Translations under genes and position numbers: made by a program
NCBI GenBank assembly: GCA_963932905.1
Contig: CAWVRN010000022.1
Coordinates: 11,182-75,181, forward strand
Direction of reading: 5' to 3'
From: an uncultured Bdellovibrio sp.
GTDB taxonomy: Bacteria > Bdellovibrionota > Bdellovibrionia > Bdellovibrionales > Bdellovibrionaceae
Length of the DNA: 64,000 nucleotides
The notes under the pieces: model-generated
Databases searched by the model: none
What the model was told of the DNA's origin: nothing
What the model saw: only the letters and a program-made list of their open reading frames with translations
Part shown: in pieces, positions 1,806 through 20,140 of the stretch
Numbering within the stretch: the first letter of the stretch is position 1
Layout: each line of letters begins with the position of its first letter

Positions 1806-1811
1806 GAATGT

Positions 1812-3296: not shown

Positions 3297-4853
3297 CTAC
3301 CTAACAACCAAAGGCATATCGAGAATTTGGCTCTTAGGAATCAAATAAACCCCGTGACGGACGCATGCGGCTTGAACTTCGCTATTATCAAAATGGCCCG
3401 TAACCAAGCATCTAGTCGCGGTTGGTGGCGCTTTTTGAAGCCAGTCGAGACCGGTGTCATCCGCTCCCAAATCAAAGTCAAAAAGAAAGGTGCATAAGTT
3501 TGGTTGGATTTGAATATCTTGTTGCTCCGAGAGCAGTTCTTGTCCTTGGCTCATGAACTTAGTTCGTTTCAATAGATCGGTGTCGTGAAATTTTAATTTC
3601 CACAGCGCTCGGCCTGTTTCTTTATCGTCTAGAACATAAATTCGTGAATCTGCACTAAGTTTTAGTCTTGGTAAATACCATGCAGCCCTGTCCTTTGTCG
3701 GCAGTCGAATCCTAACCGTGGTTCCAATTCCAAGTACGGATTCCAACTTAACAGAACCGCCCCAAGCCTCAATATTTTCTTTGGCATGAGAAAGGCCAAT
3801 GCCTGATCCACTAATTTTGCCATGAGAAAAATTCTTCTCAAAAACATAAGGCACGTTTTTAGGATCAATTCCTTTTCCGTTATCAATTACTGAAATTTCA
3901 ACTTCACCACCGGCATCCTTAGCACGAACAACAATTTTTCCCGACAAATCAATCGCTTCAATAGAATTTGTTACTATGTTTCCCAAAATAGCTCGAAGCT
4001 CAACTGGGACATGTGACACTAATGTTGAGCAAATCATGTCGTCTACTTCATATTGAAAATCAATTGTTTTAGAAACATAAAGTGTAAGTTCTCGCTTTGC
4101 TTGCAATAAGGTGCTGTAAAGATCCGACTCGAATTCTTCTGACAGCTCGCCAATGGGTCTATCGTCAAGCTTTGCAATTAGCTCTTTAATCTGACTGATA
4201 GTGAGCTCTAAAAGTTCACGATCATTACCGACAGCCTCAGGTAATTTTTTTGGAATTCGCATTAGTGCGGCCAAGGGTGTGCGTAAGTTATGTCGCACTT
4301 GTTGAGCCACTTCACTTTTAGCAAGCTTTTTCTCGATTTCTAAATCTCGGTCAAACTGTTCAATTAACTTTCGCTTTAAAAAGCGCGTTTGTGGTATAGA
4401 CACTAGATTTAAAATCAGCCAAATTAGAAATGCGTAAGGAATTAAACGAAACCGTTCAAATTCAAAAACAATTTCATCTGTTGTTCCCGATGAAATAGAG
4501 CTCTGAATTGGTACACGAATAGAATCCCGGCTAGCTGTTTTCCAAAAACTTTGATCTTTAAAAACTTCTGCTTTAGGCGGAATCACGAACGATCTTCCAG
4601 GCTGAGTCGATTTATAGTGAATCGTAGTGAAGCTTGAGAGCCTGGCTTCTTGTAAAATCAAGGTTGCTTCTCTGAAATCCCCGATTTTAACCATCCTAGA
4701 TAAGAATCGAGTATTTTCCTCAGCTACTTTTTGCAAATGAAGCGCGTTGAAGACAACTGAAACTCCGCAAAAAATCAGAAGACATAGCCCCGAAATGATG
4801 TACTGCTTGCGTTCGAACGCTTTAATTTTATGCGCCGGTGTTTTATTATTCAT
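3297..4853 (-). CDS. Membrane hybrid sensor histidine kinase with a C-terminal receiver-like domain
   Basis: Two TM segments; H-box AQQVRHNLRTPL; N box NIVTNSIEA; DNGKGI and GSGIGL; C-terminal VLDD...FLFD...LVTG...IPK. Confidence 0.9.
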   Translation of the reverse strand: MNNKTPAHKIKAFERKQYIISGLCLLIFCGVSVVFNALHLQKVAEENTRFLSRMVKIGDFREATLILQEARLSSFTTIHYKSTQPGRSFVIPPKAEVFKDQSFWKTASRDSIRVPIQSSISSGTTDEIVFEFERFRLIPYAFLIWLILNLVSIPQTRFLKRKLIEQFDRDLEIEKKLAKSEVAQQVRHNLRTPLAALMRIPKKLPEAVGNDRELLELTISQIKELIAKLDDRPIGELSEEFESDLYSTLLQAKRELTLYVSKTIDFQYEVDDMICSTLVSHVPVELRAILGNIVTNSIEAIDLSGKIVVRAKDAGGEVEISVIDNGKGIDPKNVPYVFEKNFSHGKISGSGIGLSHAKENIEAWGGSVKLESVLGIGTTVRIRLPTKDRAAWYLPRLKLSADSRIYVLDDKETGRALWKLKFHDTDLLKRTKFMSQGQELLSEQQDIQIQPNLCTFLFDFDLGADDTGLDWLQKAPPTATRCLVTGHFDNSEVQAACVRHGVYLIPKSQILDMPLVVR

Positions 4854-5653
4854 TGGCCATCCGCCGTTTCTGCAACAAAACGAGCCGTCTGAATCGGCGC
4901 ACTTGATAGAATTGAAACTTGTGAATGATCGACGTGAACTCTTTTTAGCATCGGAATGTCAGTGCGGAAATCGTCTGCGTCAATGTCACAAACAAGCAGG
5001 GGTTCAATCTGAGATAAAAATTTTGAATCTATATGCCATGGGAGCTCTACATCAGACTTTTTGTTTTCATCGGTAAGCCATGCAAAATTTGGCAGAGCTT
5101 CCAATAACGATCGCTGAATACTTTTTTCTAAGGAATTCGACAAAGCAAATCCAAAAGCCGTGGCACCGCCAGAAGTGACCTTCATTGAACACACTAATCC
5201 GAATAGTTCTTGAGGCGTTTGCATTTTATAAAAACTTAATTCGGATTCGGGATTTAGATTTCTAAACTTTTTTGTATCGATGCTTTCAAGAAAAATTTGG
5301 TGAAATGGAATTTTTTCTTTAAGATGTTTTTTAAGATAAAATCGTTCCAAAGCCTCGTGACTGGCATGATCGATGGGATCATATGTGCTACCTATCGCAA
5401 ATCCAACGGAATCAAATCCCAAGCTTTTACAAATCAATCGCTCGATTGCCTCGGCAACGGATTTTTCAAGTGCAATTTCACGGCTAGAATCTACGCCTCG
5501 ACCTTTTGCCTCAGTACCATCCCAGGAAAGAGTCGTAGAAAAATCGTGTAACCCAGGAAGGATACGATTAGACCAGCTAAACTCTTTAAATCGAGGATTT
5601 AGCTCATGCCGTTTTGAATAAAGCCAAGCGGCTAGTGGAGTTTTATTCGCCAT
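4850..5653 (-). CDS. Minimal YcaO-like protein
   Basis: Three YcaO-type motifs in order: GRG..S...A..KSVAEAIER, DSVGFAIGST...HEALER, AFGFA......IQRSLLEA; only 267 aa. Confidence 0.65.
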   Translation of the reverse strand: MANKTPLAAWLYSKRHELNPRFKEFSWSNRILPGLHDFSTTLSWDGTEAKGRGVDSSREIALEKSVAEAIERLICKSLGFDSVGFAIGSTYDPIDHASHEALERFYLKKHLKEKIPFHQIFLESIDTKKFRNLNPESELSFYKMQTPQELFGLVCSMKVTSGGATAFGFALSNSLEKSIQRSLLEALPNFAWLTDENKKSDVELPWHIDSKFLSQIEPLLVCDIDADDFRTDIPMLKRVHVDHSQVSILSSAPIQTARFVAETADGQ

Positions 5654-7170
5654 AATTGATTATTCGCATAGAGTTCTGATAGTTCGATCTTCCAAGGTTT
5701 TCTAACTAAAGCCGCGTACGGTGATGCGATTAGCGGTACAATCGCAGGTTCAGATAATGCTTTATAATGAAGTTCCTTAAGCTTATTAATCCGTACTGCT
5801 TTATCATCAGTAGCCATGTAATCAGCTAGCCACGCCGAACGCTGCGACTTTGAAAGCCCCAAGAGTCCAGCATTTAATGAATACGAAATAAGACTAATGT
5901 CTTCCATAAATCCGGTGTCTCCTGATGCAAGCCACGCATGAGGAATATCTTCTTCATTTTCATATTTCTTAAATTCCGGCGAATTTGTTTCTTGGTAACA
6001 ATTAGCCATAGGAAGTGCCGTCTGGATCGGGTTCGCCCATTCTTCAATGGCAGAGCGCCGGATGAGTCCAAGTTTAAAATGCTTTTTCGGAGCAGTCATA
6101 TCTTGAGTGCTTACTTCGACGAGACGTTGCTGCTGCTGAACTGTCAGTCCACCTTCGCCAAGGCTTGGAAAAAACTCAGCTCTTTGCTCATAACCCGGAA
6201 TATTTTCATAAAGTTTTGCAAAGACGGCTTTCATCTTTTCGCCAATAAATCGTCTTTCACCAGCAGATAGTTCTTTTTGGCCTCGTTCAGTAAAAACGAG
6301 AAAAAGACTTCTGATTTTCATTGTTACGTGACTTTCAAAATCTGCATTATTTGCAGCAAAGCGAAGCGCCTCACTCACTTTGGTTGAGTCTACTGTGGTT
6401 AAATGATCAATCCGATTTTCTTTTAGAGCGGTAAGGCTTGAATTCATAACCGAAGTGTCCATGGGCACTAATACGATCTTGTCAGCGATCTCAGAAGACG
6501 CAAAATAATGATTCGGATTCAGCCTAAGTACGATGTTTCCATTTCCATCATCTTCTGACAGCGAATATGGACCACTTGTTTCAGAAAAATTCGTAATTTT
6601 TAGTGTTTTTGGATCAACGCTAGATTTTGGGATTATAGCAAAATCAATCGCTGAAAGCATTGGCAGCAAAAACGATTTTCTTCCCTTGGCTTCAAGGTAC
6701 ACATGCCCGTTGTCCTGTCGAATGCCAGGGCATGGGTCTTCAACTGATTTTAGCTCGACGCCAGGGCAAACAATATCTTTAAAATTCCCATGTGTATTGC
6801 CGGAAAGAATTAAAAGTCTTTTTAACGAAAAAATGACGTCATCAGCGGTGATAGGAGCACCGGAAATAGTTTTTAGACCCTTTCTGATGGTGAGTCGAAG
6901 CTCGTCACCGACCCAATCAACCTTTTCAGCAACACCAGGCTCGATGGACCCACTTTTTGAGATTTCAACGAGCGGCGAAAACACATTCTCTAAAAAAATA
7001 TACTCATAGTCCATACTGATGCTGGTCGGCTCATAAGTTGAGGCCTTCAGCTTAGCTGGAAAGGCCACTCGCAATGTTCGATCTTTATTTACATTTTTCA
7101 TAGAAAGCAGTCCTCCGACAACGAGCACAACAGCGGTCAATGTTAGCATTTTGATAGTAATATTCTTCAT
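5632..7170 (-). CDS. Family 5 (OppA/DppA-like) extracytoplasmic solute-binding protein
   Basis: N-terminal signal/anchor; VFSPLV...IEPGVAE, LTIRKG...SGAPITADDVIFSL, SGPY and LRLNPNHY motifs. Confidence 0.85.
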   Translation of the reverse strand: MKNITIKMLTLTAVVLVVGGLLSMKNVNKDRTLRVAFPAKLKASTYEPTSISMDYEYIFLENVFSPLVEISKSGSIEPGVAEKVDWVGDELRLTIRKGLKTISGAPITADDVIFSLKRLLILSGNTHGNFKDIVCPGVELKSVEDPCPGIRQDNGHVYLEAKGRKSFLLPMLSAIDFAIIPKSSVDPKTLKITNFSETSGPYSLSEDDGNGNIVLRLNPNHYFASSEIADKIVLVPMDTSVMNSSLTALKENRIDHLTTVDSTKVSEALRFAANNADFESHVTMKIRSLFLVFTERGQKELSAGERRFIGEKMKAVFAKLYENIPGYEQRAEFFPSLGEGGLTVQQQQRLVEVSTQDMTAPKKHFKLGLIRRSAIEEWANPIQTALPMANCYQETNSPEFKKYENEEDIPHAWLASGDTGFMEDISLISYSLNAGLLGLSKSQRSAWLADYMATDDKAVRINKLKELHYKALSEPAIVPLIASPYAALVRKPWKIELSELYANNQLWRIKLH

Positions 7171-7182
7171 ATAATTCTGACC

Positions 7183-7458
7183 TTAATATGGTCCTCCACC
7201 AAGACAAACCGTGTCGGGATCTGTTGTGCCACGGTCAATACGGCCTTCAGATTCAAGAACGCTTAGAATATCGTGATCAAATTGCACGCACTGGTTTTGG
7301 TTTGCTGTCAGGGTTTTAGTGCTACCTAAAATCCTAATCGCCCAGGCGATCTGCTGTTTTTGCAGCGGAGTCAACTTCTTGGCCTGATCTACATCAGCTA
7401 AAGCCGTGACGTTAATTCCCACCATCCCTGCGAAAATTGCTAAAATTGTTTTCTTCAT
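7183..7458 (-). CDS. Small secreted protein (91 aa), candidate signal precursor
   Basis: Sec-type signal MKKTILAIFAGMVGINVTALA; GAGGGGG SD; start overlaps the regulator stop; two Cys; ends TVCLGGGPY. Confidence 0.75.
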   Translation of the reverse strand: MKKTILAIFAGMVGINVTALADVDQAKKLTPLQKQQIAWAIRILGSTKTLTANQNQCVQFDHDILSVLESEGRIDRGTTDPDTVCLGGGPY

Positions 7459-8846
7459 AATTCATCCCCCTCTAATGTTTTTTGTTTGAGTTCAAATCCA
7501 TATTTTTTCATTTTTTCACGTACAGTACTCCGACTAAGACCTAGTATTCGGGCTGTAGCTGCTATCGATCCACCTTCTTCGATAGCTTTTAGAACAATTT
7601 TTTTCTCGGTGCTCATTTGACTCAGTTTAAGCATTTCTAAATCCGCAGGCTTTATTTTTATGTTAGAAATGTCGGCTCGTGTTTTTAATAAATCGGCATC
7701 CAGGTATTTTTCTGGCGAAAGGTTTACTAAAAATCGAATGCAATGCTCTAGTTCACGCACATTGCCTGGCCAACTTAGTTTTTTAAGTTCCTCAGCAGTA
7801 GATTCTAGAAGAATTTTATTTTCTCCTGACTCTGCATTGGCTTTTTTTAAAAAAGCTTGCGCCAGAATAAGAATATCTTCTGGCCGTTCTCTGAGCGGCT
7901 TGACATTAATAGGAAGGACATTGAGCCTAAAGAACAAATCCTCACGAAAAGATTTTTCTGCAATCAGTTTTTCTAACGGAGCATTGGTCGCTGCAATTAG
8001 TCTGAAATCTATTTTTTTACTTTCATTTGAACCCACAGGAGTAATTGTTTTTTCTTGAAGAACACGCAGTAAAGTGGCCTGCAAATGTTTCGGCATTTCG
8101 CCGATCTCATCTAAAAAAATCGACCCGCCGCTAGCACTTTCAAAATGGCCTTTTCGGCTGCGAGCGGCTCCAGTGAAGGCGCCTTTTTCATGACCAAAGA
8201 GTTCACTTTCAATTAAATTTTCTGGAATAGCAGCGCAATTGACAGCAACAAATGGCATTCTGTTTCTTGGCGAAAGATTGTGTATGGCGCGGGCCACTTT
8301 TTCTTTTCCCGTTCCATTTTCGCCACGAATCAAGACCGAATCATTTGCTGGTGCAAATTTTTGAATGAGCCTTGCTACATCAGCCATTGATTCTGAAACT
8401 CCAATCATGCCAACCGATGAAATTAATTTTTGATTGTCTGTGTGTGTAGAAATTAACAGCGGTTTTTCACGACGTTCGACTTCACGACAGGCGCGATGCA
8501 AAATCCCCAGCAGCTTTGCTTCGCCGATATCTTTTTCAACAAAGAAAACTGCACCAGAGTTTAAAGATTTATTGTGCGCATCGATAGAATCATCACCAGA
8601 CAAAGCCAGGACAGTAAGCTTAGGTTCAATCTGTTTGAGTTTTTGAATAGTCTCAGGGCCTTGGATTTCTGGCATATGGTAATCAACTAGGGCTAAAGAA
8701 AATGATGCTACCCTTTGACGAATAAGTGCGATGGCCTCATCACCGGTAGACACAGCACGAACAAAGAAGCCTTCATCGTTTAAAAACGAAGTCATTGAAC
8801 GCCGAAATGCCAGATCATCATCTACGAGTAGGATGTTGTGCTTCAA
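7455..8846 (-). CDS. Sigma54-dependent NtrC/AtoC-family response regulator (REC-AAA+-Fis HTH)
   Basis: LLVDDD, LVDYHMP, GENGTGKE, ESELFGHEKGAFTGA, FLDEIGE, WPGNVRELE and a C-terminal HTH; TTG start. Confidence 0.95.
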   Translation of the reverse strand: MKHNILLVDDDLAFRRSMTSFLNDEGFFVRAVSTGDEAIALIRQRVASFSLALVDYHMPEIQGPETIQKLKQIEPKLTVLALSGDDSIDAHNKSLNSGAVFFVEKDIGEAKLLGILHRACREVERREKPLLISTHTDNQKLISSVGMIGVSESMADVARLIQKFAPANDSVLIRGENGTGKEKVARAIHNLSPRNRMPFVAVNCAAIPENLIESELFGHEKGAFTGAARSRKGHFESASGGSIFLDEIGEMPKHLQATLLRVLQEKTITPVGSNESKKIDFRLIAATNAPLEKLIAEKSFREDLFFRLNVLPINVKPLRERPEDILILAQAFLKKANAESGENKILLESTAEELKKLSWPGNVRELEHCIRFLVNLSPEKYLDADLLKTRADISNIKIKPADLEMLKLSQMSTEKKIVLKAIEEGGSIAATARILGLSRSTVREKMKKYGFELKQKTLEGDEL

Positions 8847-9384: not shown

Positions 9385-9551
9385 CCTATTTTCATAAAGC
9401 ATTTTTCTGCTTCGTTCATTTTTTTCATTCTTATCATTTACTTAACTGTTTTGGCTTCTCATTAAAATTTGTTGTTGTCGTTCTTGCTCCTTAGATCACC
9501 TCAATGGCTGTCGTAGTGGCGGCTTCTAACACAAACAAAGGAGGTGCATCT

Positions 9552-9758
9552 ATGAATGCAAAACAAAATAGAGAGCAAACAAAACATCGGACACAGCTAA
9601 ATCTAGCGCTGATCACGTTAGAAAAAGCTGAGCCGCGCTCAATCTGGCAAAAAATCAAATCAGTGCTTTCAACATCTGATTTAGATTTTGAAAATTGGCA
9701 GCGACTGGAGTCAAAAAAATTTAAACATGGTTTCTCCGACCAGAGGAGGAATCAATAA
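9552..9758 (+). CDS. Hypothetical protein, first gene of the transfer operon
   Basis: Strong AAGGAGGTG SD before ATG 9552; coupled to the next gene. Confidence 0.65.
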   Translation: MNAKQNREQTKHRTQLNLALITLEKAEPRSIWQKIKSVLSTSDLDFENWQRLESKKFKHGFSDQRRNQ

Positions 9759-10009
9759 TGTCCCGTACATTAAAAGATAAAAGACCTATTTATCGCCGTG
9801 ATGATGAACCCATTTACAAAACTCATGAGGAACCTGTTTTAAAACGACGATTTCTTAACTTCAGAAAATCAGGACCACGCCTGGACGGAGAAGAGTGTCC
9901 AGAATGTGGCGGGCTTACACACTTTCAAAGTGGTTATCTAACTTGCTGTGAGTGCGGCTGGACAGAAGATGTAGTTGATATGTGTGATTTGGAAAGGTTC
10001 GCCGTATGA
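9758..10009 (+). CDS. Small zinc-ribbon protein
   Basis: CPECGG...CCECGW; GGAGG SD; overlapping start and stop codons on both sides. Confidence 0.7.
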   Translation: MSRTLKDKRPIYRRDDEPIYKTHEEPVLKRRFLNFRKSGPRLDGEECPECGGLTHFQSGYLTCCECGWTEDVVDMCDLERFAV

Positions 10010-10419
10010 GTAAGCGAGCAGATTTTCCTTTTAGCAACGTAATTCCCATCAGAAAAACAGATCACTTTGGCGTATACACCGGCGATGTGCTTCCAAGCGG
10101 TGAAGTTATTGAAGGAGAAAGTGTTGGAATTGCTTTTTTAAAACAAGGCAGCAAGAAATTTCGTCTTAAACTCTTTGTTTATCCGAACAATAGCTACTTC
10201 GTCGTTCCCGACGACAAAGACGACGCCAAGTACATCGTTCTAAGCCTAGAGGAATACCAGCTTTCCGGGGGCGAAACACGTTCGCATTGGAACCGGATCG
10301 GCGAAGGAAAACTTACCGGAAGCTTTATCGCGCTTCGACTACAGCTCATTCCGGAGCCGCTATTCCTGTGTCTATTTCCAGAAAAAAATATCGCCGAGGA
10401 GGACGCAATTGCATCTTAA
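10006..10419 (+). CDS. Hypothetical protein
   Basis: 137-aa ORF with ATGA coupling inside the operon. Confidence 0.65.
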   Translation: MSKRADFPFSNVIPIRKTDHFGVYTGDVLPSGEVIEGESVGIAFLKQGSKKFRLKLFVYPNNSYFVVPDDKDDAKYIVLSLEEYQLSGGETRSHWNRIGEGKLTGSFIALRLQLIPEPLFLCLFPEKNIAEEDAIAS

Positions 10420-10456
10420 TCAATTTACTCAAAACAAAAATATAGGAGGTGAAAAT

Positions 10457-10741
10457 ATGAATCGAAAACAATTCTTTTTCTATGCCGTACTCACAGCTAT
10501 GATCTTTATCGTTCCAGAGATTGGCCTAGCGAGTGTGGAATCTTCGCTTATGGGGATTCAAACAAAGCTCACGCGAGTAATTCTACCGTCGCTCTCGATC
10601 TGCGCCATTGCCTGGGCTGCATTTTCAATGATGTCCGGCAATGACAAATCAAAAACGCATCTTTGGTATGCGATTATTGCAACGATTGTGGGCTTCGGGG
10701 CGGAATCCATCGTTAATTTTATATCAACGACGGTGCGCTAA
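10457..10741 (+). CDS. TrbC/VirB2-like conjugative pilin
   Basis: GGAGGTG SD; leader ending PEIGLA followed by two hydrophobic helices; sits before VirB3/VirB4-like genes. Confidence 0.75.
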   Translation: MNRKQFFFYAVLTAMIFIVPEIGLASVESSLMGIQTKLTRVILPSLSICAIAWAAFSMMSGNDKSKTHLWYAIIATIVGFGAESIVNFISTTVR

Positions 10742-11064
10742 TGAGTAACGAATCAATTCTAACTTCGACCGTGCCACGCACGCTAGAAACAAAAAACAAA
10801 ATTTTAGGATTGGAACTTTCAGACGTTCTTGTCCTTCTTCTTAACCTTTCAGCGCAAAACCTAGTTTTTGGGTCAACAAGTTTTAAAATTCCGATGGTGT
10901 TTGGAACAAGTTTATTTCTTGGGCTAACTCTTTTCTTTTTCAAAAAAGGAAAGCCCGATCACTACCTTCAACACTTCGTTGAGCATTTCATTTCACCAAC
11001 GGTTTTCGCGGCGAACGCAATTGATCTTCAATACCGCAGATTTAACAAAGGGGGTAAGTTATGA
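10741..11064 (+). CDS. VirB3-like membrane protein
   Basis: VPRTL...KILGLE..D plus two TM segments, directly upstream of the VirB4 ATPase. Confidence 0.7.
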   Translation: MSNESILTSTVPRTLETKNKILGLELSDVLVLLLNLSAQNLVFGSTSFKIPMVFGTSLFLGLTLFFFKKGKPDHYLQHFVEHFISPTVFAANAIDLQYRRFNKGGKL

Positions 11065-13523
11065 TTGAAGCTGCATTGTGTGAACAACTTCCATTTTGGG
11101 AATTTGAACAAAACCCGATTCCTCATGCCATTTTATCGGACGGCTCTATTTCGGCTGGTATCGAGCTTTTGCCACTAGATATTGAATGCTTTGATGAATC
11201 CAGAATCAATCAACTGACATTAGGATTAAGAGCGTTTACCAACTCGCTACCAGAAGGAACCACGGCGCAATTTTTAGTAAAGGTTGAATCTGACATTGAA
11301 GAAGTTCTTAAAAAACACTGTGACTTAGTTTCTACTGAAAATGAATTTTTAAAACACCTTGACGAAAAGCGATCACTACACTTATTCGATCAAATTCAGT
11401 CAGAATCTATTTTTCGACCAAGGCTTTTCTTTTTCCTAAGAACGTCTGGTGTTCAAAAGCCCAAGGCGCTTTCTTTCGGTAAAACTAAAACATTTTCAAT
11501 GGAATTTGAAAAAAGTCATGAAGATCGGATTCAGACTCTAGGTCAGGCCATTGAAGGTGCGTCTGGCCTTCTTTCATCACTTGGGTTTACGACAACTCGC
11601 TGCGAGCGAGAGGATCTTATTCAAATCCTTTACAGCTATTTTAACCCTAAACGATCCAAGGAAATCGAAAAGCCGCATGTTTCAATAAAATCAACCGATT
11701 TAGACGACATTTCCCCAAGGGCACAAATTGTGTTTGGCGATCTGATTCTTGATCGTGAAGATTTTATTTTAGATCAGCGTCGGACTAGAGTCCTCACTTT
11801 AAAAACGCTTCCTGAAATGACTTTCGGTGGAATGATGAGCTCTTTTCTGGCTTTGCCATTTAAATATGAACTAATTTTTTCGTTTCGTATCCAGGACCAA
11901 GCGAGTGAGATAAAAGTATTAGAAAGTAAACGCCGTATGGCACATTCGCTTTCCAGCACAGCAAGCAATAGAGTCTCAGATTTGGAGAGCGAATCAAGGC
12001 TTTCACAAACGACTGATCTTCTACGTGAGCTGATCGAAACTGGTCAGCGCATTTACCAAGCTGAAATGATAGTGATTCTTCGTGAATCAGCAAGTATCGA
12101 AGGTGAAAAGAAATTAAACTTACGAACGAAAGAAGTTTTGTCGCGGTTTAAAACCTTAAGTGGCTCTGAAGGAATTCAAGAAACCGTCGGTGCTTGGAAA
12201 ACATTTAAATCAGATTTACCTTTGGCCCCGCTAAGTCTTGTACGCGCGAAAGCCATGAAGACAAACAATCTTGTTGATTTTCTTCCGCTCTACGGAGCTG
12301 CCACAGGTGACGATAATCCGGTTTGTTTAACAAAGACTCGGCTCGGAACACTGTATTCTTATGATCCCTATTCATCTCGTCTTAGCAACTACAATGTGCT
12401 TACGACAGGTTCTAGCGGATCAGGAAAAAGCTTTGCAAATAATTTTTTGATGCTTCAGCAGATCGCGCGCGGCAGCAGACTATATGTGATCGACATTGGT
12501 GGATCATACAAAAAGATGACCGAGGTTTTAGGTGGCCAGTATTTTGAGATCAATCTTTCTGGCACATACGTCATTAATCCTTTTGAATTGTTAAATCCAG
12601 CCGAACCTCCAAGTGGAGATCGCCTTAAAGGCTTTGTCAGCATCATCGAGCAAATGGTCGTCGATCAGGGTGAAAAATTAAACCGTTTTGATCGAGTTCA
12701 GCTAGAGGCGGCATTGACGGCAGTGTTTGAAAAAGCCCGGAAAGAATCCAAACCTCGCTCGCCTTTACTCACGGATCTTGCAAAACATTGCCTGAACGAT
12801 TCTGAAGAAAGTTTAAAACGAATTGGAAAGCTTCTTTTCCCGTGGGTTGGTAAAACTCCCTATGGAAAATTGCTTGATGGCGAGGGAAAAATTGCAGTTG
12901 ATAAATCTGTCGTAGCCTTCGACCTGAAAGGACTTTCGCAGTACCCGGATCTTCAATCAGTGATGATTCTGATTTTGACAAACTTCATTTTAGAGCAAGT
13001 CGAAACTAATCGCACAGTTCCAAAGCGCGTTTTATTAGATGAGGCCTGGGAGCTTTTAAAAAGTCCAGCAGCAAGTTCTTTTATGGAATATGCCGCACGC
13101 ACGTTTCGTAAAACTGGAAGCGGAATCACATTCATTACCCAAGGCGTGGAAGAGATTATTGCAAGCGGAATGGGGCCAGCGATTTTAAATAACACGGCCA
13201 CAAAACTTGTAATGCTCCAAAAGGGCGACACGAATGTTCTGCGCGAAGCTTTAAAGCTCAATTCACAAGAGCTTAGGCTTATTCAAAGCTTAGAGCAAAG
13301 AAAAGGACTATTTAGTGAAGGCTTTTTAATGGAGGGTGAAAGCCGTCAGATTATCCGAATTGAACCATCACCACTGGAATATTGGATTTCGACTTCTGAT
13401 GCTCGTGATAATCAGTTTTTAAATCAATTGCGTGATAAGGGCCACTCGCTTGAGTCAGCTTTATTGAAAGCGGCAGAGCTTGCGCCATTCGGAGTTTCTT
13501 CCATGAAGGCGGTGGCCGCATGA
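11061..13523 (+). CDS. virB4: VirB4/TraC-family conjugative ATPase
   Basis: 820 aa; Walker A GSSGSGKS, VIDIGGSY, INPF, LLDEAW, RTFRK, ITQ. Confidence 0.92.
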   Translation: MIEAALCEQLPFWEFEQNPIPHAILSDGSISAGIELLPLDIECFDESRINQLTLGLRAFTNSLPEGTTAQFLVKVESDIEEVLKKHCDLVSTENEFLKHLDEKRSLHLFDQIQSESIFRPRLFFFLRTSGVQKPKALSFGKTKTFSMEFEKSHEDRIQTLGQAIEGASGLLSSLGFTTTRCEREDLIQILYSYFNPKRSKEIEKPHVSIKSTDLDDISPRAQIVFGDLILDREDFILDQRRTRVLTLKTLPEMTFGGMMSSFLALPFKYELIFSFRIQDQASEIKVLESKRRMAHSLSSTASNRVSDLESESRLSQTTDLLRELIETGQRIYQAEMIVILRESASIEGEKKLNLRTKEVLSRFKTLSGSEGIQETVGAWKTFKSDLPLAPLSLVRAKAMKTNNLVDFLPLYGAATGDDNPVCLTKTRLGTLYSYDPYSSRLSNYNVLTTGSSGSGKSFANNFLMLQQIARGSRLYVIDIGGSYKKMTEVLGGQYFEINLSGTYVINPFELLNPAEPPSGDRLKGFVSIIEQMVVDQGEKLNRFDRVQLEAALTAVFEKARKESKPRSPLLTDLAKHCLNDSEESLKRIGKLLFPWVGKTPYGKLLDGEGKIAVDKSVVAFDLKGLSQYPDLQSVMILILTNFILEQVETNRTVPKRVLLDEAWELLKSPAASSFMEYAARTFRKTGSGITFITQGVEEIIASGMGPAILNNTATKLVMLQKGDTNVLREALKLNSQELRLIQSLEQRKGLFSEGFLMEGESRQIIRIEPSPLEYWISTSDARDNQFLNQLRDKGHSLESALLKAAELAPFGVSSMKAVAA

Positions 13524-14221
13524 AAAAGAAATTTGTCGCAATTTCGTTGTGCTTTTCCATGATGCTTTCCCCAAGGGCCGCGAAAGCGGACCTCTTTGGC
13601 GGAGATGTTGCCGTTCTTCTTCAAATTCTTGCGCAGGCCATTCAAACCGTTACGACACTTCAAAGCGTTTTAGAAAACGGCAAAGATTCCCTTAATCTTA
13701 TGCGCGATCTAAATGCTGGGATTAGAAGTGGTATTGATGTCATTCGTATCATCAATCCTAACTTCAATCCAGGTGTCTATGGGGATTTAAAAGATGCTGA
13801 TCGTGTGCTTGCTGCGATTGAAGCTGTCTATGGAATTGTACCAAAAGGCATGGACGAAGACCTTATGCGTTCGCAAGATCAAAGCGTTTCTGAAGTTATC
13901 GCTATGAATCGTAATCTTTACGACTACGCCGATCAAGTGGACCTCGAGCGTGACAAAATTATTTATCACGCTCAAGTCGTTAGCCCCCAAGGGGCTGGCA
14001 AGCTTCAAAACCAAGCTTTAGGCGTTCTAATCGGGGTCACTACGCAGCTTCTTCGCACGCAAAGTCAAATGCTCAAACTCATGGCGCAAAACATGGCCTA
14101 TGACACGCGACAGGAAAAGCTATCAACACAGAACTTTCAGGAAAACTATCAGGGGCTCTCGAAAGGGTTTGAAAGTTTACCGAAAGACACAAAGCTTCCG
14201 CGCTTAGGTGGTGGCAAATGA
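13520..14221 (+). CDS. VirB5/TrbJ-like exported protein
   Basis: Signal peptide ending AKA; helical Q/L-rich sequence; lies between VirB4 and a VirB6-like gene. Confidence 0.55.
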   Translation: MKKKFVAISLCFSMMLSPRAAKADLFGGDVAVLLQILAQAIQTVTTLQSVLENGKDSLNLMRDLNAGIRSGIDVIRIINPNFNPGVYGDLKDADRVLAAIEAVYGIVPKGMDEDLMRSQDQSVSEVIAMNRNLYDYADQVDLERDKIIYHAQVVSPQGAGKLQNQALGVLIGVTTQLLRTQSQMLKLMAQNMAYDTRQEKLSTQNFQENYQGLSKGFESLPKDTKLPRLGGGK

Positions 14222-15093
14222 TGCCAAATCTTGAAGTGCTCGGAACTTTAGTGCGCGAGCTGTACCAAGGGTTAAGCCAGCTTTTCTATCTGATGTTGCC
14301 TGTTGCGATTTTATTTTCAGTGGTCTTTGGCTTTTTGAAGTCAGGTGATCCAAATTATCCAGACATTCTGAAGCGGGCTTTTGTTGCAGCACTTCTTATT
14401 GTTTCATTTCCTGAAGTTTCAAATCTTATTCTGGATGTTTGTGATGGTATAGCTTCAAAAATTGACGATATGTCGGGCCTTGAAGCTTTTATGAAGATTG
14501 CGCAAGAGAAATCACTTGGATATGCCGCCGCCAAGAAAATTCTGCTGCTAAAATTCGATGGCTTTTTTATGGCGATTTTAAGTTTTGCAAGCTTTGCTCT
14601 ACTCTATATCGCAAAGTATTTGACGGTTGTTCTTTACTATTTTTATTGGGGACTTTTGTCGATTGCAGCACCTCTGATGATTCTTTGCTATATGTTTCCA
14701 GCAACAGCCAACATCACTGTGAATCTCTACAAGGGTCTAATTGAAGTTGCGTCATGGAAAATTATCTGGGCGATTTTATCGGCCATGCTGAAATCAATTT
14801 CGTTTGGATTCATCTATGAAAATGAGCAATCCTATCTGCCACTTGTAGCCATGAATTTTATTATTGCTATCGCTCTACTTTTTACTCCAAGGATTTTGAA
14901 ATCATTAATTGGTGAAGGTGTTCAATCAACAGCAGCAAATATCGGAGCAACAGCCGTTTCGGGTGTAATGACTGCTATCACGCCAGCGGCAAAATTAGCA
15001 CAAGGAGCAAAGCTTTCGCAAGTCATCATGCCGCGAGCGTGGAGTGTTCCTAATCAAAAATTCAAACCAACAACAACAAACAAACGACCTTAA
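14218..15093 (+). CDS. VirB6/TrbL-like polytopic membrane protein
   Basis: About 6 TM segments, APLMI motif, A/G-rich tail; gene order. Confidence 0.65.
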   Translation: MMPNLEVLGTLVRELYQGLSQLFYLMLPVAILFSVVFGFLKSGDPNYPDILKRAFVAALLIVSFPEVSNLILDVCDGIASKIDDMSGLEAFMKIAQEKSLGYAAAKKILLLKFDGFFMAILSFASFALLYIAKYLTVVLYYFYWGLLSIAAPLMILCYMFPATANITVNLYKGLIEVASWKIIWAILSAMLKSISFGFIYENEQSYLPLVAMNFIIAIALLFTPRILKSLIGEGVQSTAANIGATAVSGVMTAITPAAKLAQGAKLSQVIMPRAWSVPNQKFKPTTTNKRP

Positions 15094-15113
15094 CGGTCAA
15101 AGGAGGTATTTTT

Positions 15114-15704
15114 ATGAAAGATAAAATTTCAATCCAACTTAGTTCATACCCAAAAGCCATGCGAGAATTTGCCGAAGAAAATTTAAATATCAAATTTCTT
15201 CTAAGCGCATTGCTTGCGGTTACATTTTTAATGCTGATTTTAGTGCTTTACCTTACTAAGCAAGGCCCAAAGGTGATCGCACTTGAAAGTAGTGGCGCAA
15301 TCGCTACGATTGAAACCAAAGTCACCGATGCGCAAATTGAATCGGCTGCGAAAGAGTACATTCGTCACCGCTATTCATGGAATGAGCAAACTATTTCCGA
15401 AGAGCTATCAAAAGCAAAATTTTTTGTTTTGCCGTCGCTAGCCTCAGCGTTTGAACGCTCGATGCAAGAGACAATGAAGTTCGTTCGAGAAAAGAAAGTT
15501 CGACAGCGTGTTTATCCAAAGACCATCACAGTTGATCTAAAAGAAAAACGAATTAGTGTTTTAGCGGATCGAATTACAGAGTTTGATAACCTGAAGGCTG
15601 CAACCGAGCTTAGGCTTTCTCTTCAGTTCACAATTGATGATCGAACTGTCATTAATCCGTGGGGTGTGTATGTAACAAAAGAAACTGAGGAGGCTACACT
15701 ATGA
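15114..15704 (+). CDS. VirB8/TrbF-like protein
   Basis: Single N-terminal TM and the C-terminal RTVINPWGVYV signature. Confidence 0.75.
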   Translation: MKDKISIQLSSYPKAMREFAEENLNIKFLLSALLAVTFLMLILVLYLTKQGPKVIALESSGAIATIETKVTDAQIESAAKEYIRHRYSWNEQTISEELSKAKFFVLPSLASAFERSMQETMKFVREKKVRQRVYPKTITVDLKEKRISVLADRITEFDNLKAATELRLSLQFTIDDRTVINPWGVYVTKETEEATL

Positions 15705-16414
15705 GGTTGTATATAATTTCTTTCGTTTTTTCGATTTTTATTACAACAACCGCAAGTATTGCTCAGATCCGAAAAACACACGCCAAAGAAGACGACATCC
15801 TTACAGTTAAAACGGCTTTGGGGATTGCAACGCTCTTGCAACTTCCAGAATCCATTCAATCAGCGATTATTGGTGATCTATCAGGGTTTAAAATCGAGTA
15901 TCTTGAAAAAGCAGTAACGATCAAGCCCCTTCGCTTCGGTGCAAAGACTAATTTGTATCTGGTAACGGGATCTCGGCGCTATAATCTTAGGCTGGTAACT
16001 GGAACTCAAGAGCTAGCTGATTATATCGTGTACTTAAAGAAACCAGAAACACCAAAGCCTGAAACGAAGTGGCGTAATTTTTCTAAATCAGCCACGCAAA
16101 AAAATTTGAAACTTTCAGTTGTTCGAATCGGACAGACGCCAAGTGGATTCATCTTGATGGATGCAATTCTAACTTCGACTCAAGTTCAGCGAATAACAGT
16201 TCGGCCTGAATCTATTTGGATTAAGCAGGCTGGAAACTCAAAAGTCATAAATAGTCTTTTTATGTCCGATTCTAAGGTCGAAAAAGATAAAGCGCTACGG
16301 ATCGGTCTATCGCTAGCTAAGTCTGATTTAGCAGCTGGAAAGCCCATAACAATTGAGGTCAATTCAGAGCAATCTATATCCCTTCAAATCTTGGAGGCTG
16401 AATTATGGAAGTAA
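15701..16414 (+). CDS. VirB9/TrbG-like outer-membrane core protein
   Basis: Signal peptide; TALGIATLLQLP, IKP and KTNLYLVT..RRYNLRL motifs. Confidence 0.75.
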   Translation: MRLYIISFVFSIFITTTASIAQIRKTHAKEDDILTVKTALGIATLLQLPESIQSAIIGDLSGFKIEYLEKAVTIKPLRFGAKTNLYLVTGSRRYNLRLVTGTQELADYIVYLKKPETPKPETKWRNFSKSATQKNLKLSVVRIGQTPSGFILMDAILTSTQVQRITVRPESIWIKQAGNSKVINSLFMSDSKVEKDKALRIGLSLAKSDLAAGKPITIEVNSEQSISLQILEAELWK

Positions 16415-17364
16415 AAAATAAACTCTCCGTTATTAGAGACAAGCTTAAAACATTAAAAAATGGACTAAAAACTTCTGTCATCCAAGAAAATGCATTCAGT
16501 AAAAAATTTGATCTGAATATCAAGACCATAAAACTTTTAGCGATCTTTGGCGTAGTAGTTTTCGTCACCGTTGTATTTATGATTCCAACGGACGTTCCTA
16601 TCGAATTTACGGAAAAGATTGAACGCTCGGATGAAAAGAAACCTGATTCTAACAACTCGCAAAATGCATTGCAAAACCAACAATCAGCTCAAGCGCTATG
16701 GGCAGCACCCAGGGTTTCGATTCCGGGTGGATCAGCAGGAAACCCGGTCAATTACAATACATCAATGATCGTTGGTTCAAAACTCGGTAACGCAAAGACC
16801 GAGCTGCGCTCTGGAATTCGCGTGGCTTTAAGACTTATGGATAAGGTCATAGTTTCTCAAGACCCTGTTCCAATCTTGGCAGAGTCTATCCTTGATTCGG
16901 TTTCTGACTCTGGGTTAAGGCTTCCAGCTGGAACAAAATTCTACGGACAAGCGAGCTTTCAAAAAGGATCTGATCGTGCGCAAATTCGCTTCGATCAAAT
17001 TTCTTTAGCCAGCGGACAAATCAAACGCATTTCAGCATTTGCGCTAGATAAATCAGGACAGGCAGGCATTTCGGGAAAAGTTTTTTCAGATGGAATGAAA
17101 AACGCAACTGGCCAAGTACTTACAACCTTTGTTGGGGGACTTGCCGCAGGAAGCATGCAAACCGATATTAAGGGAAATTCCAAAGGCGGCATTGAAAATG
17201 GACTACTCGGTGCGGTCGCTGCAACTGCACAGACTCGTGCGCAAAACTACGGCGAAAAATTAAAAACCGAAAGAGAATGGATCGAATTAAACCCAGGCAC
17301 CGAGTGTGATGCGGTTTTAAATGATGCTTTCAAATTACAAGAAGGAGGTGAAAATTATGAGTAA
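16405..17364 (+). CDS. VirB10/TrbI-like core protein
   Basis: One TM, low-complexity linker, LPAGTKFYG, DRAQIRF and D.SGQAGI.G motifs. Confidence 0.8.
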   Translation: MEVKNKLSVIRDKLKTLKNGLKTSVIQENAFSKKFDLNIKTIKLLAIFGVVVFVTVVFMIPTDVPIEFTEKIERSDEKKPDSNNSQNALQNQQSAQALWAAPRVSIPGGSAGNPVNYNTSMIVGSKLGNAKTELRSGIRVALRLMDKVIVSQDPVPILAESILDSVSDSGLRLPAGTKFYGQASFQKGSDRAQIRFDQISLASGQIKRISAFALDKSGQAGISGKVFSDGMKNATGQVLTTFVGGLAAGSMQTDIKGNSKGGIENGLLGAVAATAQTRAQNYGEKLKTEREWIELNPGTECDAVLNDAFKLQEGGENYE

Positions 17365-19006
17365 TCAAAAATCAGACATGTCAGATCGTGGTTTTTTAAT
17401 TCTAACCACGGCGCTTGGAGCCGGAATTCTTTGGCTTAAGTATAAACTGCAAATTGTTACGTTTATCGTTAATTGGCGCATAGCAATTGCTTTTACGATT
17501 TCTCTCGGCGCTGTATTTGGTTTTCAATTGCTTCGCAAAAAGCTCAGAGCTAAGAATAAAGATTTAGACTTAGAGAATGAAATTGTGACACCAATAGATG
17601 ACGAAGACGCCGTCTATGCAGGACTTTCAGTTAATGGCAAAAATATCTATGTGAAACAACCATTCAGAAGAATGCACACGCAAGTAGTCGGCACGACAAA
17701 CGCTGGAAAAACTGAATCGGTTATTTTGCCTTGGGCCATTGACGACATTAAAAAACGTCGAGGGCTTTTAATCATTGATGGTAAATCCGACATGAGTCTT
17801 TTAAATAAGCTCTATGCTTATGCCAAAAGACATCATCGTGAAAACGACATTAGAATTTTATCACTTTGTAATGTCGCAATCAGCCACTCTTTTAATCCCT
17901 TAAGCGGAGGCTCAGCACTTGAAATAACAGAGCGCGTTTTTAACGCCTTTAACTTTGAAAATGAATACTTTAAAAGTATTCAGTATGACGTTTTTCTTCA
18001 TTCGTTGCTGATTCTAGAAGCTGTCGGTGTTAAACCGACGCCCTTAAGAATGATCGAATGCATGAAAAATGAAAAAGCTTTAGCAGATCTTGCCATTGCT
18101 TCAAAAAAGCCCCGACTTCAAGTTTGGGCCGGAGAATATCTAAAACTAAACCGTGAAGAGCGAGAGCAAAGAACAAGCGGCCTTGTGGCTCAACTTCAAA
18201 GTTTTGCGGTGGGCGAAACGGCACAGGTGTTTAATACAGAAATTTCAGACATCAACCTTGAGCAAGCGTTAGAGCATAGCGAAATCATTTATTGCCAGCT
18301 TCCAGCTTTGAAAATTCCAACGCTCGGAAAAGCGACTGGCAAAATGATTCTTCAGTGCTTACAAAGCGCGGTATCATCAAGGCACCTTGGGAAATATAAT
18401 AACCAGAGCTTCTTTTCAGTTTACCTTGATGATTTTACAGAATACCTGACGCCAAGTTTTGTGACGCTATTAAATAAATCTCGAAGTGCCAATGTTGGGA
18501 TCGTTTTTGCGCATCAGGCTCTCGGCGATCTTGATGGTCTGGGTGATGGGGTAAAGAACACCATTCTTACAAACTCGAATCTTAAAGTTTTTATGCGTAC
18601 CAATGAACCCGAATCTGCCGAATATTTTTCATCAGTTATTGGCACGATTCAAGGATCAAAAGTAACTGAACGGCAAACTAAAAGTCTTTTCGGAAGTGAA
18701 AAAACTGGTGATGGTTCTATTCGTGAAGTCGAAGAGTTTAAATATCATCCAAATGTCTTTAAGCAGGAGCTTGGCATCGGTGAAGCCGTGATGATTATTC
18801 CTCATGCTCAAGGCAGTCTTCCGATTCGGTTGAAATTCAAAAAATCTTTTGATCTAGATGCGCCTCAAGTTCCGCTCATTCAAAAACCAGAGCCGACGGG
18901 CCTTCCAAAACTTGAAAGCTCAGCTCCGGCGAATCAGCCGCAGACACCCTTGCGTGCTCGTGCGGATGTGATGACGGAGCTAACCCAAGAAAGGAAGGCG
19001 GTATGA
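17357..19006 (+). CDS. VirD4/TraD-like type IV coupling protein
   Basis: Two N-terminal TMs; HTQVVGTTNAGKT, LIIDGK, FNPL, YLDDF, KSRSA, AHQ; GGAGGTG SD before ATG 17357. Confidence 0.88.
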   Translation: MSNQKSDMSDRGFLILTTALGAGILWLKYKLQIVTFIVNWRIAIAFTISLGAVFGFQLLRKKLRAKNKDLDLENEIVTPIDDEDAVYAGLSVNGKNIYVKQPFRRMHTQVVGTTNAGKTESVILPWAIDDIKKRRGLLIIDGKSDMSLLNKLYAYAKRHHRENDIRILSLCNVAISHSFNPLSGGSALEITERVFNAFNFENEYFKSIQYDVFLHSLLILEAVGVKPTPLRMIECMKNEKALADLAIASKKPRLQVWAGEYLKLNREEREQRTSGLVAQLQSFAVGETAQVFNTEISDINLEQALEHSEIIYCQLPALKIPTLGKATGKMILQCLQSAVSSRHLGKYNNQSFFSVYLDDFTEYLTPSFVTLLNKSRSANVGIVFAHQALGDLDGLGDGVKNTILTNSNLKVFMRTNEPESAEYFSSVIGTIQGSKVTERQTKSLFGSEKTGDGSIREVEEFKYHPNVFKQELGIGEAVMIIPHAQGSLPIRLKFKKSFDLDAPQVPLIQKPEPTGLPKLESSAPANQPQTPLRARADVMTELTQERKAV

Positions 19007-19296
19007 TGAAGCGTTTAGTTTTATCACTTCCCTTTGTTTTGGCTAGCTGTGCTCATTCGCCAAAGTGCGGAAATCCAGAGGGCGCAAGAATCATTTTTAC
19101 AGGTAAAAAAACTTGTGAAGTCCGTATTCGCCAGGTGACGATGGGATCAGAGCTTAAAATCCCACAATCACTAAAAGGTGCAGCACTTGCGGATTTTACC
19201 CTAGACTGGATAGAACCAACATTAGAATCTGGCCGGATTGAGCTTGGACACTTTGTTTTAATTCCGTCATCTAACTCAAAGGATCAAGCACGATGA
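19003..19296 (+). CDS. Small lipoprotein (possibly VirB7/TraV-like)
   Basis: Lipobox LASC; coupled within the transfer operon. Confidence 0.55.
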   Translation: MMKRLVLSLPFVLASCAHSPKCGNPEGARIIFTGKKTCEVRIRQVTMGSELKIPQSLKGAALADFTLDWIEPTLESGRIELGHFVLIPSSNSKDQAR

Positions 19297-20108: not shown

Positions 20109-20140
20109 TGACTTTCCAAAGTAAATTCAACATGATCGCG

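Follow-up and report, generated by a model that had tools for sequence, protein, structure and literature searches.

A small YcaO-type protein in a Bdellovibrionota signalling cassette and its candidate protein substrate

Introduction

YcaO enzymes are known from antibiotic-type ribosomal peptides, from methyl-coenzyme M reductase and, in recent reports, from ribosomal proteins. In the azoline-forming members, Cys and Ser are the nucleophiles. The archaeal YcaOs that modify McrA are stand-alone domains without a fused RiPP (a peptide made by the ribosome and modified after translation) recognition element (RRE); they act on a protein and not on a short peptide, and they work with TfuA and a sulfur source. 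Here we describe a small YcaO-type protein, mini-YcaO, that is encoded in a two-component operon within a 64,000-nucleotide stretch of DNA from an uncultured Bdellovibrio sp. (hereafter the window; GenBank assembly GCA_963932905.1, contig CAWVRN010000022.1, positions 11,182 to 75,181 of the forward strand). Signalling operons that include a modifying enzyme are familiar from agrBDCA and comQXPA, which combine the genes for a precursor, the enzyme that modifies it, a sensor kinase and a response regulator; the agr precursor is modified at a Cys near its C-terminal part. In LuxP–LuxQ and TorT–TorS, a periplasmic or surface binding protein that has no transporter feeds a kinase, and OppA-type receptors (PrgZ of pCF10; Opp with PhrI of ICEBs1) capture a secreted, gene-encoded peptide that controls conjugation genes.

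In one structural report, McbD has three α/β sub-domains, in which three long helices form the ATP sphere and carry the conserved Mg-binding Glu residues (PMC6395948). The same report assigns a C-terminal dimerisation domain to E. coli YcaO, and another reports that E. coli YcaO acts on the ribosomal protein uL16 (PMC13063428). Azoline-forming YcaOs depend on an E1-like/RRE partner and on a PxPxP tail or a terminal Pro, and often also on a dehydrogenase (PMC6395948; bioRxiv 10.1101/2025.07.11.664356). The second source presents the C-terminal PxPxP motif as a mark of azoline-forming YcaOs.

We found that mini-YcaO is a real, conserved and undescribed YcaO variant that is built into a signalling cassette. 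Among the papers that full-text searches listed, with a coverage that leaves out most subscription journals, none describes this cassette of YcaO, two-component and solute-binding protein (SBP) genes.

Predicted fold and active site of mini-YcaO

At the level of predicted fold and active site, mini-YcaO is a genuine but unusually small YcaO-type enzyme. Its AlphaFold2 model (predicted local distance difference test (pLDDT) 91.4; predicted template modelling score (pTM) 0.88) has the three α/β sub-domains around a central nucleotide cavity that characterize the YcaO fold. Foldseek placed YcaO enzymes, among them those of M. kandleri and M. jannaschii, LynD, McbD and E. coli YcaO, at all of the top 31 listed ranks (E 1.3e-8 to 1.4e-5), and the best match was 6ci7 (E 1.3e-8, probability 1.00). 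VIA-align superposed 13 YcaO entries at Z 14.7–16.7 over 230–254 residues, with TruD at Z 11.1 over 208; the best was M. kandleri YcaO (6ci7_F; Z 16.7, root-mean-square deviation 3.1, 230 residues aligned). Model residues 1–267 also aligned with residues 14–397 of the E. coli YcaO chain (Z 15.0, 240 residues aligned). The best entry outside the YcaO enzymes, at Z 7.0, was a double-stranded RNA (dsRNA)-binding domain that is similar to the N-terminal sub-domain. As modelled, the whole of mini-YcaO is one YcaO domain minus about 120 residues, taken mostly from between the first two motifs.

The translation contains the ATP- and Mg-binding residues of the YcaO superfamily (two ExxE-R pairs, an SxGxxxG loop and the third-helix Arg and Glu), in the form G51-R-G53, K64xxxE68xxE71-R72, S82xG84xA86xG88, H96xxxE100xxE103-R104 and G168...R181xxxE185. 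The gene and its main motifs lie at the following window positions:

4850..5653, minus strand: mini-YcaO, 267 amino acids (aa); open reading frame (ORF), cytoplasmic and without a signal peptide as judged by eye
5438..5452, minus strand: first Glu pair, E68-A-I-E71-R72, on long helix 58–78; from the alignment of 39 sequences and a by-eye match to E. coli YcaO
5390..5410, minus strand: SxGxAxG motif, S82-V-G84-F-A86-I-G88; G84 invariant, placed by hhalign
5342..5356, minus strand: second Glu pair, E100-A-L-E103-R104, on long helix 93–113; aligned with E199xxE202-R203 of E. coli YcaO
5099..5113, minus strand: R181-S-L-L-E185, on the third long helix, 175–194; aligned with R286...E290 of E. coli YcaO

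Across 39 short YcaO relatives, with identities down to 17%, six residues (G51, E68, E71, G84, E100 and E103) are invariant, and G53, R72, R104, G168 and E185 are conserved in at least 90% of the same broad alignment. This invariance, together with the predicted YcaO fold, argues that the motifs did not arise by chance. Using hhalign with the broad alignment (A4), residues 81–188 of mini-YcaO aligned with residues 179–293 of E. coli YcaO (E 2.4e-4), which paired E100/E103/R104 with E199/E202/R203 and R181/E185 with R286/E290. The narrow alignment (A1) gave a probability of 1.5% in the same comparison, too weak for use. The hhalign match covers mini-YcaO from residue 81 on, and the first motif was paired by eye with E75xxE78-R79 of E. 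coli YcaO. The E. coli residues matched in these ways are reported by Dunbar et al. (2014) to be the nucleotide and Mg ligands. In our model, the conserved residues sit on the three long helices (58–78, 93–113 and 175–194), in agreement with the description of McbD.

A sequence-only reading of this DNA had recognized YcaO ATP/Mg motifs at these positions and had proposed a stripped-down YcaO. The motifs are confirmed by the translation, by their invariance in the 39 relatives and by the YcaO fold, and 'stripped-down' describes its fold and active site correctly (AlphaFold2, Foldseek, VIA-align, conservation and hhalign). The structural comparison with E. coli YcaO that it had suggested likewise recovered the fold. 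It had counted about 7 residues between ExxER and SxGxAxG; the gap is indeed short, but it spans 9 residues (73–81, between R72 and S82), compared with 100 between E75xxE78-R79 and S180xG182xS184xG186 in E. coli YcaO (sequence from NC_000913).

The mini-YcaO family comprises 102 clusters of 190–282 aa, whose named members are each a 'hypothetical protein' of Bdellovibrionaceae, Oligoflexia or 'Deltaproteobacteria' metagenome-assembled genomes (MAGs). A profile search of 1.84 billion representatives returned 698 clusters at E ≤ 1e-3, with 475 at E ≤ 1e-10 and 67 at E ≤ 1e-30; the best 150 listed of the 698 are 115–410 aa long, mostly 250–340. Against the sequences of solved structures, mini-YcaO as a single sequence matched no chain, and the A1 profile reached two chains at chance level (E 0.86 and 1.4) and no YcaO.

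A five-gene signalling cassette

Mini-YcaO is the fourth gene of a minus-strand operon that runs from a sigma54-dependent response regulator through a 91-aa exported protein, an SBP_bac_5-type (SBP5) binding protein and mini-YcaO to a hybrid histidine kinase. The other genes are, in the order of transcription:

7455..8846, minus strand: sigma54-dependent response regulator, 463 aa, first gene of the cassette; Sigma54_activat (E 9.2e-71), Response_reg and HTH_8 in Pfam, NtrC/AtoC/ZraR-like in NCBIfam
7183..7458, minus strand: small exported protein, 91 aa; ORF with a signal peptide at about 1–21 (by eye, cut after ALA)
7204..7272, minus strand: part of the small protein (residues 63–85) with the docking helix DILSVLESE, a linker and T83-V84-C85; from alignment A3 and the predicted interface
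5632..7170, minus strand: SBP_bac_5-type binding protein, 512 aa, with an N-terminal hydrophobic anchor or signal sequence; PF00496, E 1.5e-12
3297..4853, minus strand: hybrid sensor histidine kinase, 518 aa; Pfam HATPase_c, E 1.9e-21; alignment A2

The gene content is that of a two-component system with an accessory SBP receptor. The regulator consists of a receiver, an AAA+ domain and a Fis-type helix–turn–helix. The kinase has two transmembrane segments flanking a periplasmic part of about 85 aa (by eye), an H-box with H188, HATPase_c and a C-terminal receiver-like domain. The binding protein comes without a transporter, as no ABC transporter genes are present in the cassette, and its Cys pair C135/C147 is conserved in 17 of 18 sequences, with no conserved third Cys. 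At its start, mini-YcaO shares 22 nt with the end of the upstream SBP gene, and its stop overlaps the kinase start as ATGA, which bears out the two-component operon that had been proposed from the sequence. That proposal did not include the SBP5 gene in the unit, the presence of the cassette in several copies and its spread in Bdellovibrionota, or its border with a region resembling a conjugative element.

The genome has four copies of the cassette in all, each with five genes. The three other copies lie on other contigs:

C1:538966-539757: cassette copy, locus L054
C30:2355-2957: cassette copy, locus L004
C56:2368-2967: cassette copy, locus L005

The C30 copy is near-identical to the C56 copy, and their YcaO is only 26% identical to that of the window. 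We found a homologue in 59 of 401 sampled Bdellovibrionota genomes (39 of 203 genera). A locus search with the narrow alignment returned 13 loci, all labelled Bdellovibrionota except for one MAG labelled Chlamydiae. In a narrow set of 29 loci from other genomes, the ORF upstream of YcaO matched SBP_bac_5 at E ≤ 1e-3 in 22 of 28 cases, 17 of which exceeded the Pfam cut-off; it was a sigma54 regulator in 2 and an ORF of about 500 aa without a Pfam match in 4. The downstream ORF contained HATPase_c in 26 of 27, and the exception was cut by the end of the locus. A wide set (36 loci tabulated, two of them duplicates) gave 34 distinct loci. The gene directly upstream of YcaO in these was an SBP in 30 and a regulator in 2, one locus lay at a contig edge, and L052 had one more SBP by eye; a kinase directly followed YcaO in 33 of the 34. 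The locus L030/L052 encodes a 401-aa YcaO without an adjoining kinase. Searching from the SBP side, we found YcaO beside the SBP in 27 of the best 30 loci, and one further locus was cut by a contig end.

One contig with a homologous cassette together with type IV secretion system (T4SS) genes (L098, CALBHK010000007.1) belongs to a MAG labelled 'uncultured Chlamydiae', a label that could be due to a binning error or to transfer.

The small protein and its predicted docking on mini-YcaO

The small protein belongs to no Pfam or NCBIfam family, and in the ESM Atlas it gave no feature score of 0.8 or above and only structural matches with a template modelling score below 0.5. We aligned 16 diverse members (A3) and found that their similarity is confined to the signal peptide and a C-terminal module, [DS]-I/L-I/L-x-x-L-x-x-x-G-x-hydrophobic...[ST]-[IV]-C (ILxxLxxxG...[ST][IV]C). 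Apart from the start, the only positions conserved in at least 90% of A3 are L68 and C85. The position aligned with C85 is Cys in 27 of 28 readable loci and Ser in the remaining one (L053). Several members end one residue past this Cys (TICF, TICL, TICM, TVCI and VICY), and the window's clade extends past it with a Gly-rich tail (TVCLGGGPY). A second Cys, C57, is conserved in the window's clade, and many other members have a single Cys. The small protein has a conserved helix about 17 residues before the aligned Cys/Ser, where a recognition sequence might lie, and the predicted interface fits this, but it carries a Sec signal peptide. In an AlphaFold2 model of the isolated protein (pLDDT 70.7), we observed helix 31–46, hairpin 50–60, helix 62–70, strand 83–85 and a disordered tail at 88–91.

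We considered whether Cys85 might form a disulfide tether to the SBP or the kinase and rejected this candidate; no fixed disulfide partner is evident, because the SBP has no conserved free Cys and by eye there is none in the periplasmic part of the kinase.

We predicted a complex of mini-YcaO (A1), ATP, two Mg and residues 22–91 of the small protein (A3). The interaction prediction score from aligned errors (ipSAE) for the pair was 0.84, 0.84 and 0.82, and the three controls scored 0.56, 0.01 and 0.00. These values exceed the tool's pass mark, which demands an ipSAE of 0.32 or more and a lead of 0.20 or more over each control; among solved complexes 116 of 157 reach it, and among mismatched pairs 2 of 215. 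At least 61% of contacts were common to the runs, and the partner pLDDT was at least 57. The predicted interface consists of residues 63–65, 67–68 and 73–84 of the small protein and, in mini-YcaO, of residues 8–9, 12, 20–27, 50–52, 58–59, 62, E68, R72, E185 and 188–208. In this model, residues 63–65 and 67–68 of the conserved helix lie on YcaO residues 8–9, 12, 22, 58–59 and 62, residues 73–78 pair with YcaO strand 21–26, and residues 79–84 contact K50-G51-R52, E68, R72 and E185, which form the catalytic centre. Cys85 is the next residue. Azoline-forming YcaOs activate the carbonyl of the residue preceding the Cys, which here would be Val84.

Taken alone, residues 3–80 of mini-YcaO resemble dsRNA-binding domains (Z about 6–7, 61–82 residues aligned), and it is this sub-domain that docks the small protein in the complex model.

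A proposed modification before export

We lean, with modest confidence, towards a function in which mini-YcaO would carry out an ATP-dependent backbone modification at Val84–Cys85 of the small protein, most likely the formation of a thiazoline, before export, and in which the product would be read by the receptor and the kinase. Mini-YcaO would then be a genuine, catalytically competent YcaO domain reduced to its core, with the small protein encoded two genes upstream as its substrate. Before Sec export, the amphipathic helix 63–68 of the small protein would dock on YcaO's own N-terminal helix and strand, residues 73–78 would join YcaO strand 21–26 as a β-strand, and the segment 79–84 would thread onto the active site. 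ATP would activate the Val84–Cys85 amide. The most likely outcome, through attack by the Cys85 thiol, would be a thiazoline (−18 Da), with ATP-dependent cleavage or a different product of amide activation as alternatives. The modified protein would next be exported and bound by the membrane-anchored SBP5-type receptor, whose ligand state would set the activity of the hybrid kinase and, through the kinase, that of the sigma54 activator. In the window's clade, the output might be the adjoining type IV secretion/integrative element, which is the most speculative step. The sequence-only reading had named the 91-aa neighbour as a possible substrate, and the conserved C-terminal docking helix, the Cys/Ser position (Cys in 27 of 28) and the controlled complex prediction, which places the residues just before that Cys on the catalytic residues, favour it as the candidate for backbone chemistry.

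A wider version of this proposal is tentative, and we regard it as possible but doubtful. The cassette would be the Gram-negative equivalent of agr, carried by an integrative conjugative element, in which a YcaO without an RRE or E1 partner binds its substrate directly through its N-terminal sub-domain and installs a thiazoline or another backbone change at the C-terminal Cys of a Sec-exported protein of about 70 aa, SBP5 and the kinase read the product, and the sigma54 activator switches T4SS genes or the cassette itself.

Evidence against the proposal and rival explanations

A number of observations weigh against modification of the small protein by mini-YcaO. The Pfam YcaO model (PF02624) had no match to mini-YcaO at E ≤ 1, leaving its gathering cut-off of 25.7 bits unreached, and the best NCBIfam match was SagD, at E 0.03 and 13.2 bits where the cut-off is 219. 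The Pfam search that had been proposed as a check on the sequence-only reading was therefore negative for mini-YcaO itself and positive for many of its relatives. Nine of 32 close homologues touched Pfam YcaO at E ≤ 1 (best 1.2e-5), and 15 of 18 sampled proteins (17 sampled relatives and the paralogue on contig C30) exceeded the cut-off, over profile positions of about 111–290 of 325 only. The miss looks like a limit of the Pfam model, because the deletion takes away the spacing that PF02624 expects, and it does not contradict the YcaO fold. The expected partners and tail were also absent, as the sequence-only reading had stated. The protein ends in ...RFVAETADGQ, with no PxP or PxPxP tail and no terminal Pro, and no E1-like, TfuA or SagB-type gene was found among the surrounding genes scanned with Pfam (window 1–37722). 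Across the genome, which is 98.6% complete, profile searches for partner genes gave no match to TfuA (PF07812) at E ≤ 1; the best matches to the SagB-type dehydrogenase (TIGR03605; 17 bits against a cut-off of 78.4) and to SagC/E1-like proteins (TIGR03603; 31.9 bits against 187.65) were both on other contigs. Among longer relatives of 310–401 aa in the same type of cassette, the YcaOs of 11 of 12 wide loci end in a conserved P-H-P/F-x-G tail, as do most of the representatives sampled. This tail is reminiscent of PxPxP in its sequence, though not identical to it, and the window's clade of 265–292-aa YcaOs has lost it; its presence in the longer relatives counts for the proposal, its lack in this clade against it.

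Further such observations concern the complex and the small protein. The complex prediction used our own alignments and included ligands, unlike the calibration of the pass mark, one of its controls reached 0.56, and the partner pLDDT was only 58. Solved YcaO–peptide complexes exist, and memory of them may be part of the ipSAE score. Outside the ATP site, conservation of the interface exceeds that of the remaining residues only modestly in the close family, where 452 of 10,000 random sets reach the observed mean, and shows no excess in the broad family (4,739 of 10,000). The isolated model of the small protein pairs strand 83–85 with hairpin 50–60, and this pairing together with the conserved C57 makes a C57–C85 disulfide, for which a free thiol is required, plausible in this clade. 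Because the candidate substrate has a Sec signal peptide, modification by YcaO would have to precede export. Additionally, the two remaining loci of the SBP-side search (G219 and G276) have no YcaO, and in both genomes the sole YcaO lies in a regulator–YcaO–kinase operon (L045/L046) without an SBP or a small protein, with the SBP genes elsewhere (L079/L080).

The strongest rival explanation is that mini-YcaO acts on or with the histidine kinase (or the regulator), as a stoichiometric cytoplasmic partner, by an ATP-using backbone modification or by gating of its activity, and that the small protein and the SBP are mere periplasmic input. No two genes of the cassette are linked more tightly than YcaO and kinase: the kinase gene directly follows YcaO in 33 of 34 distinct loci and in 26 of 27 of the separate set, the stop and start overlap as ATGA, and the pair is retained in the split systems G219 and G276. 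The kinase alignment, however, has standard H, N and G boxes and a receiver, with no extra conserved Cys, Ser or Thr by eye. Action on the kinase would also leave the conserved Cys/Ser position and the docking helix of the small protein unexplained, and the complex prediction passed with the small protein, the one pair that it covered, so that it does not speak directly against binding to the kinase. We consider this explanation, which takes in the kinase modulator that the sequence-only reading had offered as its alternative, possible but unlikely. It is compatible with modification of the small protein if YcaO works in trans on small proteins encoded elsewhere; at L080, the SBP is adjoined by a 130-aa protein with the same C-terminal Cys module, ending in ...LDQLGILNRAGAAGVQICGNPSKSP.

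Two further explanations seem to us less probable still. Mini-YcaO might be a non-catalytic ATP-binding protein, an energy-state sensor or an export chaperone for the tail of the small protein, whose chemistry was lost with the insert and the C-terminal tail. The loss of the insert (about 100 residues) and the tail of its relatives would fit this idea, as would the lack of partner enzymes above cut-off in the genome and the fact that the complex model gives binding and not chemistry. Yet the four Mg-binding Glu and their flanking Arg and Gly are invariant or nearly so in 39 sequences, residues of a kind that pseudo-enzymes usually lose, and longer, tail-bearing relatives hold the same position in the cassette; we give this possibility little credence. 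We find it highly improbable that the target of mini-YcaO is a protein encoded elsewhere, for example one with a housekeeping role, and that its operon position is incidental. Stand-alone YcaOs with protein targets do exist, including the archaeal McrA enzymes and E. coli YcaO, which is reported to act on uL16 (PMC13063428). But the genome has four YcaO copies, each in its own copy of the cassette, YcaO lies beside the SBP in 27 of the best 30 SBP loci, and the cassette is patchy (59 of 401 genomes) and has mobile-element genes nearby in this clade, a combination that does not fit a housekeeping role.

Genomic context of the cassette

The cassette borders a type IV secretion/integrative-element region (9504..23156) that is encoded on the plus strand and thus diverges from it. 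Pfam identified the following genes:

10409-10741, plus strand: VirB2/TrbC pilin
11061-13523, plus strand: VirB4/TraC
15114-15704, plus strand: VirB8
15701-16414, plus strand: VirB9/CagX
16405-17364, plus strand: VirB10/TrbI
17321-19006, plus strand: VirD4 coupling protein
21381-23156, plus strand: large serine recombinase

The region also has a weak VirB6/TrbL-like match (E 0.0021, below the Pfam cut-off) and several small zinc-ribbon ORFs. In 11 of the 34 distinct loci, all of them from the clade with YcaOs of 265–292 aa, the same T4SS genes are found no more than 6 kb from the cassette.

We observed GC-rich palindromes, GGTGGCG-N6-CGCCACC and TGGTGGA-N3-CCGCCACC, at window positions 9300–9317 and 9367–9386, and a related copy near 9066–9085. 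The palindromes, which lie 140–260 nt upstream of the first T4SS gene, are conserved at that place in four of six aligned loci (the window, L037, L038 and L054), and a fifth, L036, has partial copies. They may serve as operator or enhancer sites.

A search of the window for the sigma54 consensus TGGCAC-N5-TTGC with up to 2 mismatches gave 61 matches against 52.7 expected, which is no enrichment. There was no acceptable sigma54 site upstream of the regulator gene or the T4SS operon of the window, nor in the window's clade, and we therefore make no claim on the targets of the regulator in the window. In other clades, 7 of 16 loci (L041, L004, L043, L044, L046, L047 and L048) have the consensus with 8–10 of 10 specified bases, perfect in three, between about 60 nt upstream and the regulator start. 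These sites suggest that the cassette may be autoregulated from a sigma54 promoter in those clades.

DNA near-identical to the operon is present in freshwater and drinking-water metagenomes. One metatranscriptome run contained a 1775-nt contig from a relative, with about 93% identity over window positions 6638–8390, for which DNA carry-over is possible. The kinase and YcaO parts were not covered in this run, an absence that is uninformative.

On the other side of the cassette, a 97-aa ORF at 2628–2921 (plus strand) covers only positions 1–76 of 291 of the Pyr_redox_2 profile and stops shortly ahead of the cassette, which gives it the look of a gene that the element interrupted on insertion. 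It is preceded, in window 1–2612, by a row of sulfur-handling genes (a metallo-beta-lactamase/rhodanese fusion, two sulphur-transport proteins and TauE).

Implications

As far as we can tell, this analysis is the first to offer a substrate prediction at the level of residues and the Cys/Ser rule, to distinguish two types of enzyme tail, and to describe the split systems and the link to a conjugative-element region. If the proposal is true, a YcaO wired to a sensor kinase would bring backbone amide chemistry into bacterial signalling. In the wider version of the proposal, no YcaO before it would have been devoted to signal transduction, and the modified protein would represent a new class of signal. 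At 267 residues and without partners, mini-YcaO would be the smallest working YcaO core, and its docking would represent a new, direct mode of substrate recognition for YcaO. The prediction is specific, with docking through L68 and its neighbours and reaction at Val84–Cys85. It could also reveal how Bdellovibrio-like predators control a family of conjugative elements.

Comparison with known systems

The best structural matches of mini-YcaO are the archaeal McrA-thioamidating YcaOs (6ci7/6cib of M. kandleri and 6pe3/6peu of M. jannaschii), with Z 16.7 for 6ci7_F and Z 15.6 for 6peu_B. These enzymes differ from mini-YcaO in having chains of 360–385 residues as opposed to 267, with an identity of 11–14%, and they lie outside signalling operons. 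They work with TfuA, for which we found no counterpart in this genome. The azoline-forming enzymes McbD and LynD/TruD share the fold (Z 15.3 for 6gos_D; 16.5 for 4v1u_A/4v1v_B) and the Glu-based ATP/Mg site, and in their substrates a Cys, Ser or Thr stands beside the activated amide, much as the candidate here has Cys in 27 and Ser in 1 of 28 loci. Unlike mini-YcaO, for which none of these features was found, they have an E1-like/RRE partner, a PxPxP motif or terminal Pro and, in many cases, a dehydrogenase. They also belong to antibiotic/RiPP clusters, and their precursors carry leader peptides and not Sec signal peptides. E. coli YcaO (b0905) has the same motifs and, over its residues 14–397, the same fold (Z 15.0, 240 aligned), whereas it is a protein of 586 aa in which the first two motifs stand 100 residues apart, encoded by a single-copy chromosomal gene beside focA-pflB.

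The signalling part of the cassette, which is known here from its genes, resembles LuxP–LuxQ, TorT–TorS and the OppA-type receptors in using a binding protein without its own transporter as input. To our knowledge, none of LuxP–LuxQ, TorT–TorS, PrgZ or Opp/PhrI includes a YcaO or another cytoplasmic, ATP-dependent modifying enzyme. By analogy, the cassette shares with agr and comQXPA the operon logic of precursor, modifying enzyme, kinase and regulator. The agr and comQXPA systems are Gram-positive, their enzymes are unrelated to YcaO, their kinase binds the peptide without an SBP, and their precursors are short, in contrast to the Sec-exported proteins of about 70 aa encoded here.

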